The position numbers were made by a program, and so were the translations under genes. A stretch of DNA of 64,000 nucleotides from Escherichia phage vB_EcoM_SA21RB, in sequence record OL960580; one strand, 5' to 3'. The notes beneath the pieces were generated by a model. It was not told the origin of the DNA and searched no databases. It saw only the letters and a program-made list of their open reading frames with translations. Each line of letters begins with the position of its first letter. Positions within the stretch are counted from its first letter, which is position 1. Positions 8,919-38,113 of this stretch are shown piece by piece.

Positions 8919-9389
8919 TTAATCATGTTTCCACACCCCATCGGTATTTGACCAAAGTCGCTGATTATCTGATCCTCTCCACAGCTTTTTGGTAGGAAGA
9001 TTTTTCTCATACTTCCCATCAATAATAACATCAACATATTTAAGCATTTCTAGTTGTTTAATATCTTCAAATTTATATCCTGTCCACAACCAAATGCTTT
9101 TATTTGGATAAAGATTTTTTACTGTTTGAACAATGCAATGAACAACATCTCTGTTATCAGGATAAAGAGGGTCACCCCCAGTTATAGTTAATCCTTCTAT
9201 ATAATCATTATTTAAACATTCAATTAATTGTTCTAGTGTTTCACCAGTGAATGGAACGCCATTTCTAGCATTCCATGTTGATTTATTATAACATCCTTCA
9301 CATTTATGCAAACATCCCGTAACGAAAAGAACGACCCTGCATCCAGGGCCATTCACAAAATCACAGGGATAAAATCTATCGTAATTCAT
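8919..9389 (-). CDS. nrdG: anaerobic ribonucleotide reductase activating protein (radical SAM)
   Basis: 156 aa; CxxxCxxC radical-SAM cluster motif (GCLHKCEGC); 4-nt overlap with nrdD. Confidence 0.9.
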   Translation of the reverse strand: MNYDRFYPCDFVNGPGCRVVLFVTGCLHKCEGCYNKSTWNARNGVPFTGETLEQLIECLNNDYIEGLTITGGDPLYPDNRDVVHCIVQTVKNLYPNKSIWLWTGYKFEDIKQLEMLKYVDVIIDGKYEKNLPTKKLWRGSDNQRLWSNTDGVWKHD

Positions 9390-11203
9390 TGGTGTTTAAC
9401 CCTATGCATGATTTCTTTATTTTTGCCAAGATTAAATCCGCGTTCGTTCGGATTTCCCAAATAACCACAAGTTCTTCTTATTGTGTTCATCTTTTTAGGA
9501 TCAGTTTCTCCACAAATAGAACAAACAAATCCGTTTTCAGTAGGAGTCATTTCATGGGTACTTCCACATGTAAAACATTTATCTACTGGCATGTTAACAC
9601 CAAAATAATCTAAATGTTGTGCAGCATAATCCCATACAGCCTCAAGACCTTTTAGGTTATTTTTCATATCAGGAAGTTCAACATAAGAAATGTGACCACC
9701 TGTCGCAATGAAATGATATGGGGCTTCTCGAGAAATCTTTTCAAACGGAGTGATATTTTCTTCTACTGAAACGTGGAAACTATTAGTGTACCATCCTTTA
9801 TCAGTAACATCCTTTACACTTCCATATTTTTCGGTATCGAGTTTACAGAAGCGATAACACAAGTTTTCAGCAGGTGTAGAATACAAGCTAAAAGCAAAAC
9901 CAGTTCTTTCAGTCCACTGCTTAAGACGAGCATTCATTTTAGTTAAAATTTCCTGTCCAATATCACGACCGACAAGAATATTCAATTCGTGAATACCGAT
10001 GTATCCTAGGGACACTGAACTTCTACCATTTTTAAATAACTCAATTATGTCATCATCAGGTTTAAGACGAACCCCGAATGCACCTTCTTGGTAAAGAATA
10101 GGAGCAACAGTCGCTTTAACTCCTTTTAAGGAACTAATTCTACACATCAAAGCTTCAAAACACAAATCCATTCGTTCATTGAACAATTCAACAAATTTCT
10201 GTTCATTGAACTGTGTTCCAATATAAGAATCTAATGCAATACGAGGAAGATTCAGTGTTACAACGCCAAGATTATTACGTCCATCAAGAATTTCATTACC
10301 AGTCGAATCTTTCCATACACTCAAGAAACTGCGGCAACCCATTGGAGAAACAGGAATAGATGAACCTGTGATAGCTTTATTGTTCTTAGCCGAAATGATG
10401 TCAGGATACATTCTTTTGCTTGCGCACTCTAAAGCAAGCTGCTTAATATCATAGTTCGGATCGTCTTTATAAAGATTAACACCTTCTTCAACGAACATAA
10501 CAAGTTTAGGGAAAATAGGAGTTATCCCATCACGACCGAGACCTTTAATACGATTTTTCAGAATTGCTTTCTGAATCATTCGTTCAGTCCAGTCAGTTCC
10601 CGTACCAAATGTAATTGTTACAAAAGGCGTTTGCCCGTTTGAACTAAAGAGAGTATTTACTTCATACTCATAAGCTTGAAATGCATCGTATACGTCTTTT
10701 TCTGTTTTAGATTGGGCGTAATTCAACGCATCAGCGATTTGCCATTTTTCTGCGTCCTCAATATGTTTTGCATAGGTGCGTTTAACATAAGGAGAAAGTA
10801 CTTTATCTACATTCGCAAAAGTCGTTCCGCCATATTGGTGGGAAGCAACCTGTGCAGTAATTTGCGCCATAATTGCAGTAGCAACGCCGATTGATTTAGG
10901 AGTTTCAATCTGTGCATTACCGAGCTTAAATCCGTTCTCAAGCATTCCTTTTAAATCTACTAAACAGCAATTAGTAAATGGAAGAGCAGGGGAATAATCA
11001 ATATCGTGGAAATGGATAATTCCGCTTTCATGCGCTTTCATAATAAAAGACGGGACCATATTTTTGGCAATGTGTTTAGACACAATACCAGCCATAAGGT
11101 CCCGTTGAGTTGGAAAAACACGAGAATCTTTATTAGCATTCTCGTTTAAAAGGTCTTTATTAGTTTTATGAATTAGTCCTTCAATTTCTTTTTCAATCGT
11201 CAT
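9386..11203 (-). CDS. nrdD: anaerobic ribonucleoside-triphosphate reductase
   Basis: 605 aa uninterrupted; C-terminal glycyl-radical motif RRTCGYLG and zinc-ribbon cysteines (CFTCGS...CSICG). Confidence 0.92.
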   Translation of the reverse strand: MTIEKEIEGLIHKTNKDLLNENANKDSRVFPTQRDLMAGIVSKHIAKNMVPSFIMKAHESGIIHFHDIDYSPALPFTNCCLVDLKGMLENGFKLGNAQIETPKSIGVATAIMAQITAQVASHQYGGTTFANVDKVLSPYVKRTYAKHIEDAEKWQIADALNYAQSKTEKDVYDAFQAYEYEVNTLFSSNGQTPFVTITFGTGTDWTERMIQKAILKNRIKGLGRDGITPIFPKLVMFVEEGVNLYKDDPNYDIKQLALECASKRMYPDIISAKNNKAITGSSIPVSPMGCRSFLSVWKDSTGNEILDGRNNLGVVTLNLPRIALDSYIGTQFNEQKFVELFNERMDLCFEALMCRISSLKGVKATVAPILYQEGAFGVRLKPDDDIIELFKNGRSSVSLGYIGIHELNILVGRDIGQEILTKMNARLKQWTERTGFAFSLYSTPAENLCYRFCKLDTEKYGSVKDVTDKGWYTNSFHVSVEENITPFEKISREAPYHFIATGGHISYVELPDMKNNLKGLEAVWDYAAQHLDYFGVNMPVDKCFTCGSTHEMTPTENGFVCSICGETDPKKMNTIRRTCGYLGNPNERGFNLGKNKEIMHRVKHQ

Positions 11204-26280: not shown

Positions 26281-26468
26281 TATTCTTCTACATGTTGTTT
26301 ACGACCTTTCTTATCAATAAAGGTATATTCAACGAATGTTCCAATGTAGTCTTTATCTACATCATGTGGACTATTAATTGGACATTTAGTGCGGCAAATG
26401 CGTTCCCATTGACGAATAATTACTGCTTTGTTTTTAGGATCAAACGGATGTGGGTAATGTACTTTCAT
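26256..26468 (-). CDS. hypothetical small protein
   Basis: 70-aa ORF. Confidence 0.4.
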   Translation of the reverse strand: MKVHYPHPFDPKNKAVIIRQWERICRTKCPINSPHDVDKDYIGTFVEYTFIDKKGRKQHVEEYCLKVTWL

Positions 26469-26919
26469 AATCCACCACTATTAAATCAATATCAGGAGTA
26501 AACATGTCGATTAATTTAGAAACCTTATCCCAATCACCGCCAGCAATACCACAACCTATGCGTGGAATGTAAATTACTGGTTTAAACAAAAGGGTTTCTG
26601 CCTGTAGATTTAATTCTATCATGCAGTTTACTAAAGCACCATAATCAAGATTAGGACCTGGTTCGTATTGCGTATACAGGTTATAGCATATACCAAATCC
26701 CGTAGGACTATGTTTAAAAACAATAGACATATCGCCTAATTTATCACGAGAACCGTACTCAGTAGTGGTTTTATCTATTTCTAAAATTTTGGGATAGGCT
26801 CTTGCTAATTGACCCGCTACGCCTGAACCCATAGTATGAAAACAATTGCACCCGTGCGCAATAATATTACCTTGAAGAAATAGGGCGACAATATCGCCCT
26901 TGATATATTTTACAATCAT
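26440..26919 (-). CDS. macro-domain protein (ADP-ribose binding/processing fold)
   Basis: 159 aa; KGDIV...IIAHGCNCFHTMGSGVAGQLA and IGCGIAGGDWDKV match the two glycine-rich macro-domain motifs. Confidence 0.6.
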   Translation of the reverse strand: MIVKYIKGDIVALFLQGNIIAHGCNCFHTMGSGVAGQLARAYPKILEIDKTTTEYGSRDKLGDMSIVFKHSPTGFGICYNLYTQYEPGPNLDYGALVNCMIELNLQAETLLFKPVIYIPRIGCGIAGGDWDKVSKLIDMFTPDIDLIVVDYESTLPTSV

Positions 26920-27257
26920 CTAGTACTCAATCCTCGATTATAAGAATCTACCAAACGGTCAACCATTGAATGACAAGCGGCTTTATCTTTTTCCTCCGCA
27001 ACTGAACATTCTAGGGTATTCCACTTTTTAGCATATCGTTTTAACAATGTATCATTTTTGTATCTGCTTGATTTATCTCTTTCTCCGTCTTTATATGCAT
27101 ATATTAATTTCTGTGCAAATTCAGCTTGGCATGCTTTATTTTTCCCGCAATAATCCGCTGCAGTACGGTTTACATACTCTCTAATTTCAGTATATGATGT
27201 ATCTGCTAACGCAGAAAATGAAATTAATCCTATACATAAAACCAAAATTTTAGTCAT
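26916..27257 (-). CDS. secreted small protein (signal peptide)
   Basis: 113 aa; N-terminal MTKILVLCIGLISFSALA signal peptide, four cysteines. Confidence 0.5.
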   Translation of the reverse strand: MTKILVLCIGLISFSALADTSYTEIREYVNRTAADYCGKNKACQAEFAQKLIYAYKDGERDKSSRYKNDTLLKRYAKKWNTLECSVAEEKDKAACHSMVDRLVDSYNRGLSTR

Positions 27258-27795
27258 TTACTATTTCCAAAAGTTTATTATTTTTAAGGTAATTAGCCTT
27301 TTCTAGGACTTCAGAAGCATATTTAGAACCTGCTTTAACATTCCATCCCGAATTATAAGAGGATATTGCTTTTCTTATATCGCCCTTATGTATATTTAAC
27401 CAATAAGAAAGTTCAATGTACGCCCAGGAAGCTGAATTGGATCGTTTATTCAACATTCTTTTTATTTCAGCATCGGTCATATTATAACCAAGTTCCTTAA
27501 CTCTTGCTCGCATAGTAGGCAAATAATTTTGGAACATTCCATAAGCGTGATGCTTTGGTTTAGATTTTAAATTAACTCCGCCAGAGCTTTCTTGCCATAA
27601 AATAGCAGCCATTATATGACCTAATCCGCTCTTGTGGATATTTTTGTGTGTTTTATATTTTCCATCCTTAGAAAATTGTTCCCCGAATTGATACGCGTAA
27701 CGCATGTTATCGAGTTGGACATTACTGAAAGTATGCTCGGAGCTATGTGCCATCATTGAAATGGCCAATAGACCAGCGAGTAGTGCTTTTCTCAT
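27250..27795 (-). CDS. secreted lytic transglycosylase-like protein (SLT domain)
   Basis: 181 aa; signal peptide MRKALLAGLLAISMMAHS; ILWQESSGG...YGMFQ resembles the SLT catalytic-Glu motif. Confidence 0.55.
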   Translation of the reverse strand: MRKALLAGLLAISMMAHSSEHTFSNVQLDNMRYAYQFGEQFSKDGKYKTHKNIHKSGLGHIMAAILWQESSGGVNLKSKPKHHAYGMFQNYLPTMRARVKELGYNMTDAEIKRMLNKRSNSASWAYIELSYWLNIHKGDIRKAISSYNSGWNVKAGSKYASEVLEKANYLKNNKLLEIVND

Positions 27796-28323: not shown

Positions 28324-28602
28324 TTATTCTTTAAATCTAATCAATTTATTCATAGACTTTGAAACTTCTGCACGAACCTCATGTAGATTTTTGAGCTGTT
28401 CAAGGCGCTGCGTATAGTAAGCAATTTCATCTTCTTCGAGACAGTCCTGTGAATCTTCTTTAAGATAACGTGCATAGTCCTGGAAAGCGTTACGGATTAC
28501 TTCCTGGAAATCATCAAGACTTTGAATTTTCTTAGGAGCAGCAGATACACGACGAGGGGCAGTATAATACTCATAACCAAACCCTGCACTTAATTGAGCC
28601 AT
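28324..28602 (-). CDS. hypothetical protein
   Basis: 92 aa from internal Met [10 protein letters not shown] (track ORF starts 14 codons earlier). Confidence 0.4.
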
Positions 28603-28868
28603 TAATATTTTTCCTCTGGTTGGAACATTGCACGACAAGCCCACATACTGGCTTCTTTGAGTTTCGTTTTAGCAATAGTTAACTGATCGAGGCTTTCAGC
28701 ATAATTCTTCGCGAGTTCATCATCTTCACAGCTATCGAATGCTTCCCAGAATTCATCATATAAAGCATCAAAGATAAGTCCTAAACGAACTTCAGCGTCT
28801 TTGATAGCATTCACTTTACCGATTTTCTCTTCAGTATGCGGCTTATAACCTTTAATGTCTTCAATCAT
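28602..28868 (-). CDS. hypothetical protein (at the remembered position of T4 vs.4/Acb2)
   Basis: 88 aa from MIEDIKGYK; second ORF upstream of regB, where I recall T4 vs.4; sequence identity not verified. Confidence 0.4.
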
Positions 28869-29082
28869 ATTTGACTTCCTCACCAGTACATAAATCATAT
28901 TCAACTAAACGAATAGGTTCATGAATGCCATATCCCTGAACAGAAATTTCTGTCGTAGGATAAATTCCATCAATATCACCCATATTCCACGCTTCGTTAA
29001 ATTGCTGTTCGCCTGAATTACTAAACCACTCGGCGAAAGCATTTAGCACATCTTTAGAACCTTCAATAATTATCTTTGCCAT
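28861..29082 (-). CDS. hypothetical small acidic protein
   Basis: 73-aa ORF. Confidence 0.4.
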   Translation of the reverse strand: MAKIIIEGSKDVLNAFAEWFSNSGEQQFNEAWNMGDIDGIYPTTEISVQGYGIHEPIRLVEYDLCTGEEVKYD

Positions 29083-29444
29083 TACAAACTCTCGGTAAAG
29101 GTACGAGCGATAACGTCGCGCTGCTGTTCCGGAGTCAGAGAGTTAAAGCGAACTGCATAACCGGATACACGGATGGTCAGCTGCGGATATTTTTCCGGAT
29201 GCTTAACTGCATCTTCCAGAGTTTCACGACGCAGAACGTTAACGTTCAGGTGTTGACCACCTTCAACTTTAACTGTAGGCTGTTGCTCAATTTCAATTTC
29301 ACGGGCATGCAAACCGTAGAAAATTTCTGGGTCTACAAAAGAGTCCTCTTTAAAGGTTTTAGAGACAATAATTCGTGCTTGAATACCATCTTCAAAATAA
29401 ATAGTACCTTTATGTGTGCCTTCAAGAATTTGATATGCTTTCAT
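29082..29444 (-). CDS. autonomous glycyl-radical cofactor (GrcA/YfiD-like)
   Basis: 120 aa; C-terminal [25 protein letters not shown] is the glycyl-radical loop found in GrcA and pyruvate formate-lyase. Confidence 0.75.
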
Positions 29445-29451
29445 ATAAACC

Positions 29452-29778
29452 TCAATTAGAAAATAAATTTATCCAAGATTGTTCTTTAATTAAAAATGGC
29501 TCAGAATCATATGCCATTAAACTCTGCGTGATTAGTCCTTTAAAAGGTCCATCAATAAATTCCATGGTAAAATATGGAATTTTATTCATTAGCCGTGCAT
29601 TAGGAGCAGTACATAAAACTTTGCATCCTTTGAATACACCCTTTTGTAATTTGTATTGCTTGGGATAAAATTCGCTCAAAATGTTATTATTTGCTAAAAT
29701 TTCAAAATGATTCACCAATTTATTTTTAATAGTTTTTGGCGAAAAATAAAGATATTCGAAAAGCTGAGTGTCTGTCAT
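29452..29778 (-). CDS. hypothetical protein
   Basis: start placed at ATG overlapping upstream stop (caaTGATGACA); 108 aa. Confidence 0.45.
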
Positions 29779-30470: not shown

Positions 30471-30944
30471 TTATTTGAATGATTTGACGTACTGAATAGA
30501 ACCTTTACTATTCACGAAAGCGATTTTACCATTTTTATTATACATGGTAGCAGTACGCTGATAGCCATAAGTTTGTTTACCAGATTGATAACCAACTAAT
30601 GCGAAATTATCTTCACCCATTTTATTCTGTTTAGCGCGAATACGTTCATGACCGTGTGCCATAAGAACCTTAGCATCACCAGTTGCAATGGATCGACGAG
30701 TTTTTTCATCTTCAACTGTATTAACAAAGTCGTCAAATGAATCAAATTTAGCATGAGATTTATTATACAGTTTTCCATCTACTGCATAATTATATCCTTG
30801 TACATCCATCTCAACTTCTGTACCATCATCCAATACAGCAGTGATTTTCTGACCTTTTTTAAATTTCAAAAGATCAGTAAAAGATTCAGCAATAATTTGA
30901 GAATTAATAGCTGCTTCAGTAATAAATTCTTGATATGTTTTCAT
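30471..30944 (-). CDS. internal-protein-like protein with capsid targeting sequence
   Basis: 157 aa; N-terminal MKTYQEFITEA (T4 internal-protein targeting peptide with L/I-x-E cleavage motif); adjacent to ipIII. Confidence 0.65.
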   Translation of the reverse strand: MKTYQEFITEAAINSQIIAESFTDLLKFKKGQKITAVLDDGTEVEMDVQGYNYAVDGKLYNKSHAKFDSFDDFVNTVEDEKTRRSIATGDAKVLMAHGHERIRAKQNKMGEDNFALVGYQSGKQTYGYQRTATMYNKNGKIAFVNSKGSIQYVKSFK

Positions 30945-30985
30945 ATGTTTCCTTTAAATGTAAATAGGTCTGAGTATTAGCTTTA

Positions 30986-31567
30986 TTAAGAATTACCACG
31001 GGCTGCATTAGCAACGGCGTAAGCGTACTGAACATTAGCGTCTTTAAACGTACCTTTAGAGGTATCTAGTTCTGCCTTAAAGCCGCCTTTAGTCATAACC
31101 TCGGCGAATTCTTTACGGAAAGCCATTGCATCAAGGCTTCTCCATGATGATTTGTGCTTGGCGAATTCAAGACCAGCGTAGTTGACAGCCTTAGCTAATT
31201 TATTATCAATAACCCATTTACCAGATTTAGGCACAAACACCGGGCCTTTCTGTTTAGAGAATAGTTTTAAATTCCAGCGACGAAGGTCACCGTCAGCTTT
31301 AACAAAAGCTGCGTCCAAGTTACTAGCAACAACATCTTGAATATGACCAAATTTAAGCCCATCAACTTCAATATTTAAATCGGTACGCCAGCGAAGTCCT
31401 TCCCAAGCGAAGGCTTTAAAGTCGGAAGCCTTTGTAGCTAAGTACCGTTCAATAGGAGCTGTTTTAGGGTCAAAGCCGTTTCCCGATCGGTAGGTCCACT
31501 CATCTTTATTAATGCCTTTGGCCTTTACTACAGAAGCTTCGGCAATAAATTCTTGATAGGTTTTCAT
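30986..31567 (-). CDS. ipIII: internal protein III
   Basis: 193 aa; MKTYQEFIAEASVVKAKG targeting peptide and body matching remembered T4 IPIII; early promoter upstream. Confidence 0.85.
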   Translation of the reverse strand: MKTYQEFIAEASVVKAKGINKDEWTYRSGNGFDPKTAPIERYLATKASDFKAFAWEGLRWRTDLNIEVDGLKFGHIQDVVASNLDAAFVKADGDLRRWNLKLFSKQKGPVFVPKSGKWVIDNKLAKAVNYAGLEFAKHKSSWRSLDAMAFRKEFAEVMTKGGFKAELDTSKGTFKDANVQYAYAVANAARGNS

Positions 31568-38009: not shown

Positions 38010-38013
38010 AAAT

Positions 38014-38100
38014 TGGTGGGGAGTGATGGAGTCGAACCACCCGAGTCGCAATGACAATGGATTTACAGTCCACACCGCTACCTCTACGGGATAACTCCCC
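38014..38100 (-). tRNA. tRNA-Tyr (anticodon GUA)
   Basis: hand-folded; perfect acceptor GGGGAGT/ACTCCCC, anticodon loop CTGTAAA, long variable arm as in bacterial tRNA-Tyr, encoded CCA. Confidence 0.75.
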
Positions 38101-38113
38101 TTAATTCTTAATT

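Follow-up and report, generated by a model that had tools for sequence, protein, structure and literature searches.

The vs.6 gene in the 64,000-nt stretch of Escherichia phage DNA analysed here (OL960580; the window) is a mosaic, in which a phage-type 5′ half is followed by a 3′ half whose sequence points to a recent copy of chromosomal grcA DNA of the host. The data are best explained, with high probability, by a T-even version of the GrcA/YfiD spare part for the host pyruvate formate-lyase (PFL) PflB, the conserved half of which has been overwritten from host grcA. What deserves attention is the DNA-level mosaic; the gene itself brings nothing new, T4 Y06I/vs.6 having been characterised as a GrcA analogue in 2001 and being annotated as a matter of routine. 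The original prediction had already pointed to a described T4 homologue of YfiD and had called the gene not new for that reason, which the 2001 work on Y06I bears out. It had likened the product to GrcA at the protein level only, and the identity of the 3′ half at the DNA level is an added observation. In the literature searched, no description of the DNA identity between the vs.6 tract and grcA was found, although it may have been mentioned earlier.

Identity and locus of vs.6

The features referred to in the text are collected in Table 1.

Table 1 Features of the window, with positions counted from its first nucleotide
Feature	Position	Strand	Remarks
vs.6 / Y06I-type autonomous glycyl-radical cofactor (GrcA-like), CDS	29082..29444	-	Intact ATG-initiated ORF, 120 aa
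Phage-type 5′ half, codons 1–59	29268..29444	-	AT-rich, GC 0.34, GC3 0.22
Host-identical tract, 173 nt, gene nt 178–350 (codons 60–116 + 2 nt)	29095..29267	-	100% identical to E. coli grcA nt 199–371
Last four sense codons and stop, variable 3′ edge of the tract	29082..29094	-	4 synonymous differences from host
Gly95 codon GGT, predicted radical site	29160..29162	-	Read from sequence and alignments
GAGG ribosome-binding site (Shine–Dalgarno)	29450..29453	-	5 nt upstream of ATG; overlaps stop of upstream vs.7-like ORF
nrdG, radical-SAM activase of NrdD	8919..9389	-	Pfam Fer4_12 1.4e-48, Radical_SAM 6.4e-07
nrdD, anaerobic (class III) ribonucleotide reductase	9386..11203	-	Pfam NRDD 1.2e-171, Gly_radical 1.2e-25

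The gene is annotated as 'Autonomous glycyl radical cofactor' in T4_ev240, a phage with 98.3% identity. Pfam PF01228 (Gly_radical, 2.2e-18, residues 60–101) was the sole domain of the window protein. Among the protein family models, the NCBIfam GrcA equivalog TIGR04365 was the top match by 48 bits (1.1e-45), covering profile positions 25–126 of 126; the N-terminus of the vs.6 protein is divergent and shorter, and because the first 24 profile positions are absent, the score of 154.9 bits stays below the curated cut-off of 170 bits. The NMR structure of E. coli GrcA (PDB 6owr) was matched at 6.9e-42 and PflB (1h16) at 7e-26, the latter across PflB residues 697–759, i.e. the C-terminal glycyl-radical domain with G734. 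These glycyl-radical matches are far above chance level.

Gly95 aligned with GrcA G102 and PflB G734, and the surrounding motif TIRVSGYAV ran column for column with both 6owr and 1h16. The glycyl-radical loop that had been proposed for the C-terminus, together with the quoted string, was thus found at the C-terminus of the 29082..29444 ORF, and alignment to E. coli GrcA confirmed the conserved glycine. Like E. coli GrcA (YfiD, 6OWR), which is a stand-alone 14-kDa glycyl-radical domain, the product is a small, stand-alone PFL-type domain of about 14 kDa, with no catalytic Cys–Cys pair. PflB possesses in addition a barrel of ~700 residues with the catalytic Cys418/Cys419, whereas the window protein has neither the barrel nor these residues and therefore cannot be an enzyme on its own; with no cysteine anywhere in its sequence, it is incapable of PFL chemistry alone. 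Residues 58–120 differ from E. coli GrcA at a single position, K59 in place of R (~98% identity over the C-terminal 63 residues). The N-terminal half, in contrast, is 7 residues shorter and shares only ~38% identity with E. coli GrcA (residues 22–59), and the bacterial gene lies in the context ung-grcA-eamB, whereas the window gene lies in a phage context.

The source phage is T4-like (Tequatrovirus), and the 3 kb around vs.6 show 98.3% DNA identity to T4_ev240 and 96–98% to hundreds of Tequatrovirus genomes. In annotated relatives the gene order is Vs.8, Vs.7, [vs.6], Vs.5, Vs.4, Vs.3, RegB, and RegB (Pfam, 1.4e-68) was located three genes downstream of vs.6 in the window, as expected for a member of the vs.6 orthologue group. 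T4 Y06I has the same locus (vs.8-vs.7-vs.6-vs.5-vs.4-vs.3-regB), the same length and the same glycine loop; compared with T4 strain 147, 118/120 amino acids are identical, the two differences being the conservative substitutions Q54 vs P and V60 vs I. By sequence and position, the window gene can be taken as the orthologue of T4 vs.6/Y06I, and the proposed GrcA/YfiD-like reading is upheld by this orthology along with the Gly_radical, 6OWR and PflB matches.

The stop codon of vs.6 overlaps the start of the next gene (TAATG, 29080–29084) and its ribosome-binding site overlaps the preceding stop (Table 1); vs.6 therefore belongs, as one unit, to a dense array of minus-strand genes. A scan of 28–31 kb for sigma-70 promoters and terminators gave no signal above shuffled expectation. 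Of 50,697 phage records, 1,588 contained a vs.6 homologue, among them records of T4-like, T5-like and jumbo phages, and the gene is one of 11 unassigned ORFs common to five T4-like genomes (Nolan et al. 2006, PMC1524935). The homologues of T5-like phages, RB49 (Krischvirus) and other Straboviridae share with the window protein the phage-type N-terminus (MKAYQ...) and the conserved C-terminal domain.

Host-identical DNA in the 3′ half

A 186-nt stretch at the 3′ end of vs.6, comprising the exact tract and its variable edge, has a counterpart of 97.8% identity in each of the 5,426 complete E. coli genomes searched. Its final four codons encode T-E-S-L in phage and host alike. With a GC of 0.49 and a GC3 of 0.44, the stretch stands apart from the window mean of 0.354 GC. 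Upstream of gene nt 178 the alignment with grcA collapses to ~50% (22/44 ungapped identity): the 5′ half is distantly GrcA-like at the protein level, where the profile alignment covers residues 20–59, and has no similarity at the DNA level. Past the stop codon similarity is absent as well, the downstream flank showing 14/60 identity to the host.

When the whole 64-kb window was compared with the 5,426 E. coli genomes by megablast, the vs.6 tract was the only part matched in all of them, and positions 1–22000 and 43000–64000 gave no matches. The other match was a tRNA-Tyr stretch at about 38011–38104, found in 264 E. coli records at 80–95% identity; one listed match of this stretch lies on a 101.8-kb record, apparently a plasmid. 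The phage DNA is otherwise without shared E. coli DNA, vs.6 and the tRNA-Tyr stretch being the sole megablast matches in 64 kb.

Identity beyond protein constraint

The C-terminal 61 residues of GrcA are invariant across many enterobacterial proteins, yet the underlying DNA differs from that of E. coli. This was assessed over the 186-nt stretch in a sample of ~80 bacterial grcA genes (80-species sample). Of the other genera, Citrobacter came closest to E. coli (172/186), with most at 161–171/186. The window phage reached 182–183/186 against E. coli and 180–181/186 against a sister Escherichia lineage, and at the sites that separate these two lineages the phage tract sides with E. coli. Homologues in other phages gave far lower counts against E. 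coli grcA or against the most similar host gene compared, namely T5 with 135/186, RB49 with 139/186, Pseudotevenvirus with 155/186 and Slopekvirus with 156–158/186, and their exact runs with host grcA did not exceed ~29 nt. Thus, the DNA of T5-like, RB49 and other Straboviridae copies is only 73–85% identical to any compared host grcA, with no long exact run, and these copies represent the unconverted or a decayed state. Were the divergence Pseudotevenvirus-like, 173 nt free of differences would be expected with P ~2e-14. By these comparisons the identity of the tract exceeds what protein constraint would give.

Extreme purifying or codon-usage selection, or host-read contamination of the assemblies, might produce such identity without recombination, and the invariance of the 61 residues in many enterobacterial GrcA proteins as well as the strongly biased codon set of grcA speak for selection. 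However, bacterial genera with the identical protein segment differ at 14–25 of 186 sites, and the phages Taquito and Cronuts have 31/186 sites unlike E. coli despite encoding the same amino acids. The tract occurs at >=95% identity in >500 independent phage genomes, including T4, T2 and RB phages, and its junctions keep the reading frame, with phage-type sequence on either side. The explanation is further opposed by a Klebsiella phage that has a different, Klebsiella-type allele (see below), so that this explanation retains hardly any probability.

A Klebsiella phage with a Klebsiella-type allele

The tract of the Jiaodavirus Klebsiella phage 17-11 matched E. coli grcA at only 158/186 positions. 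An exact 41-mer from it retrieved four metagenome contigs with full-length bacterial grcA, and to the grcA of one of these contigs the phage tract was identical over 164/164 nt, with the first and last few codons divergent as in the E. coli-phage case. This contig is 531 kb long, and its 8.4-kb neighbourhood (ung-grcA-srmB-nadB-rpoE-rseABC) is 94.5% identical to that of K. pneumoniae, against 86.7% for K. aerogenes and 79.7% for E. coli. Compared with grcA of K. pneumoniae strain 176, the phage 17-11 tract gave 170/186. Judged by these identities, the donor probably belongs to the K. pneumoniae species complex. Variants at the amino-acid level follow the host too: LEDAVKH is the form of E. coli and of its phages, and LLDAVEH that of Klebsiella and Jiaodavirus.

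A search for a third host–phage pair against the ~80 bacterial grcA genes yielded no exact tract for PKO111 (K. oxytoca host), Slopekvirus, Pseudotevenvirus and Karamvirus, and likewise none for RB49, T5 and the Erwinia jumbo phage; this gene set is without K. oxytoca and Aeromonas, and its K. aerogenes copy is frameshifted.

Direction, number and probable mechanism of transfers

Most simply, these sequences are read as gene conversion from host to phage that affected the constrained half at least twice. The direction runs from host to phage, as the 5′ and 3′ halves of E. coli grcA have diverged from other genera to about the same extent. Between Tequatrovirus and Mosigvirus the 5′ half of vs.6 differs by 7–13% and the tract by only 0.5–4%, and the tract therefore postdates the separation of the two genera. 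The end-points of the tract vary: it corresponds to grcA nt 199–371 in the window phage and 200–377 in T4, the window tract starting one codon and ending two codons earlier, and over the last four codons T4, fFiEco06 and RPN187 each combine host-like with phage-like bases in their own way. The E. coli and Klebsiella cases together show at least two independent host-to-phage transfers, and the differing end-points suggest further ones. Spread of one converted allele among co-infecting phages, by phage–phage recombination, could explain part of the pattern among the E. coli phages.

Within Mosigvirus, AlbertHofmann and NicPhage carry 3–4 private core changes each and a third phage none, which looks like decay after transfer, followed by refreshment. 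All tract substitutions of AlbertHofmann and NicPhage relative to E. coli grcA (7/7) are C>T or G>A, and this fits an A/T-biased mutational decay of host-derived DNA in a phage genome of 35% GC. The possibility that phage tract variants are rare E. coli alleles was rejected, as the phage variants are private and do not coincide with the minor E. coli grcA alleles, which were found in ABU 83972 at nt 222 and 246 and in WAT at nt 303. Scanning IMG/VR for the E. coli tract returned 3 contigs, all of them phage-type.

The route is most likely homologous recombination (gene conversion) with host chromosomal DNA. T4 homologous recombination is efficient, making conversion plausible. Both ends of the tract lie in frame, exactly where constraint on the protein keeps the DNA similar. 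A fresh, illegitimate capture of a host fragment was considered and rejected: the two ends fall within the reading frame in a region of protein-level homology, the host flanks are missing on either side (14/60 downstream, 22/44 upstream), and distant homology to GrcA persists in the 5′ half. The phage-type MKAYQ start of the window gene is common to T5-like phages. The gene would accordingly be an old phage gene with its conserved half overwritten.

Taken further, it is somewhat probable that vs.6 of virulent phages is repeatedly overwritten by the host allele through the T4 recombination machinery during lytic infection and decays from G/C to A/T between conversions, so that the spare part matches PflB and PflA of the current host, with the E. 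coli allele in Tequatrovirus and Mosigvirus and a Klebsiella allele in Jiaodavirus. The literature searched contained no description of natural, ongoing host-to-lytic-phage gene conversion at vs.6.

Predicted function as a spare part for PflB

PMC8683613, with reference to Wagner et al. 2001 (pmid 11444864), states that the PFL-activating enzyme places a glycyl radical on YfiD/GrcA as well as on T4 Y06I, and that each of the two restores the activity of oxygen-cleaved PFL. The Y06I result was obtained in vitro with the T4 protein, and YfiD and Y06I are named as the only spare-part proteins validated biochemically so far. For the window protein, PflA-dependent radical formation and rescue of PflB are assumed by analogy with T4 Y06I, to which it is 98% identical. 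In 43 kb of an annotated relative that were inspected, no PflA-like activase was seen, NrdG being the only activase there, and the function would therefore rely on PflA and PflB of the host.

In the proposed mechanism, the phage vs.6 protein would be produced during infection, and the host PFL-activating enzyme PflA would abstract a hydrogen from Gly95. The radical-bearing domain could then dock into a host PflB that had lost its C-terminal radical loop to oxygen cleavage and pass the radical to PflB Cys419, whereupon the repaired PflB would again turn pyruvate into acetyl-CoA plus formate. The fermentative energy (ATP) supply would thereby persist in micro-oxic or anaerobic, gut-like infected cells. 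The phage may supply the protein because the infected host can no longer express its own grcA. The docking and radical-domain half would be kept identical to grcA of the current host, while the phage-specific N-terminal half may diverge freely. Because the alleles track the host, it is suggested that the spare-part domain must fit host PflB and PflA closely. No in vivo phenotype of a vs.6 mutant and no role in infection were found in the literature searched.

The phage-specific N-terminal half, with its ~38% identity to GrcA over residues 22–59, could behave differently from the bacterial protein, and the score under the TIGR04365 equivalog cut-off might be read in the same way. The vs.6 protein would then act as a decoy or modulator that soaks up PflA or occupies PflB, diverting pyruvate flux from formate. 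We regard this as very improbable: as reported in PMC8683613, the T4 orthologue restores PFL activity in vitro and does not block it, and the radical glycine is retained with all neighbouring residues, even refreshed from the host gene, which is hard to reconcile with a lost or inverted function.

The presence of nrdD and nrdG, and with it of two glycyl-radical components, had also been predicted and holds for the window, where nrdD has a Gly_radical domain of its own (Table 1). A nucleotide-metabolism role was suggested for the vs.6 protein by Nolan et al. 2006 from the Gly_radical domain shared with NrdD (PMC1524935); it would then be a spare radical part for oxygen-cleaved phage NrdD, activated by NrdG. 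The location of nrdD and nrdG within the same 64-kb window agrees with this, as does the Erwinia jumbo phage, in which an nrdG-like gene is found one gene downstream of the homologue. However, BLASTP of the vs.6 protein against the window NrdD found no significant similarity (E=2.6), with the glycine loops left unaligned, and on this ground the NrdD reading was rejected. Against it stand also the C-terminal 63 residues, ~98% identical to GrcA and aligned with PflB at 7e-26, the DNA, which was apparently copied from host grcA and not from nrdD, and the T4 protein, which was shown to work with PFL-AE and PFL (PMC8683613). By its sequence, the vs.6 domain classifies as PFL-type, not NrdD-type, and a service to NrdD is highly unlikely. 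Repair of host PflB stays the preferred function.

In the window, nrdG directly adjoins nrdD (8919..11203, minus strand), and nrdD is a single uninterrupted ORF of 605 aa. T4_ev240, the closest relative, has a putative homing endonuclease gene between nrdG and nrdD (673–1512), i.e. a presence/absence polymorphism of a mobile element.

Consequences for phage biology, assembly and detection

T-even phages degrade host DNA. The tract is evidence that these strictly lytic phages recombine with the host chromosome in nature, and that they do so host-specifically.

In phage ES19 (MN508616.2, 1201–1404), 158 nt of vs.6 are missing; the gap falls wholly within the host-identical tract and disrupts the reading frame. 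Either the deletion is genuine, or the assembly lost this stretch when reads mapping to E. coli were removed. Filtering of host reads can strip the vs.6 tract from phage assemblies. In a 2026 paper (PMC12845203), grcA was chosen as a conserved qPCR/PCR marker for Straboviridae; if the Straboviridae grcA primers of that work sit in the conserved half, E. coli DNA would be matched and amplified.

Neighbouring genes

Two genes downstream of vs.6, a 100-aa ORF (28602..28904, minus strand) in the Vs.4 position of relatives matched the Acb2/Tad1 hairpin domain of Pfam (2.6e-18), a phage protein family that sequesters immune signals of the cyclic-nucleotide type. The ORFs at 26440..26919 (159 aa) and 27250..27795 (181 aa), both on the minus strand, occupy the positions of tk.4 and vs.1 in T4 relatives, respectively; for tk.4 a match to the A1pp phosphatase (macro-type) domain has been reported, and for vs.1 one of the SLT transglycosylase-like kind (PMC1524935). 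Upstream of vs.6, two adjoining minus-strand ORFs of 157 and 193 aa (30471..30944 and 30986..31567) both start with MKTYQEFI.EA, and in relatives the genes around 30471..31567 are labelled as internal head proteins (ipIII, ipIV).
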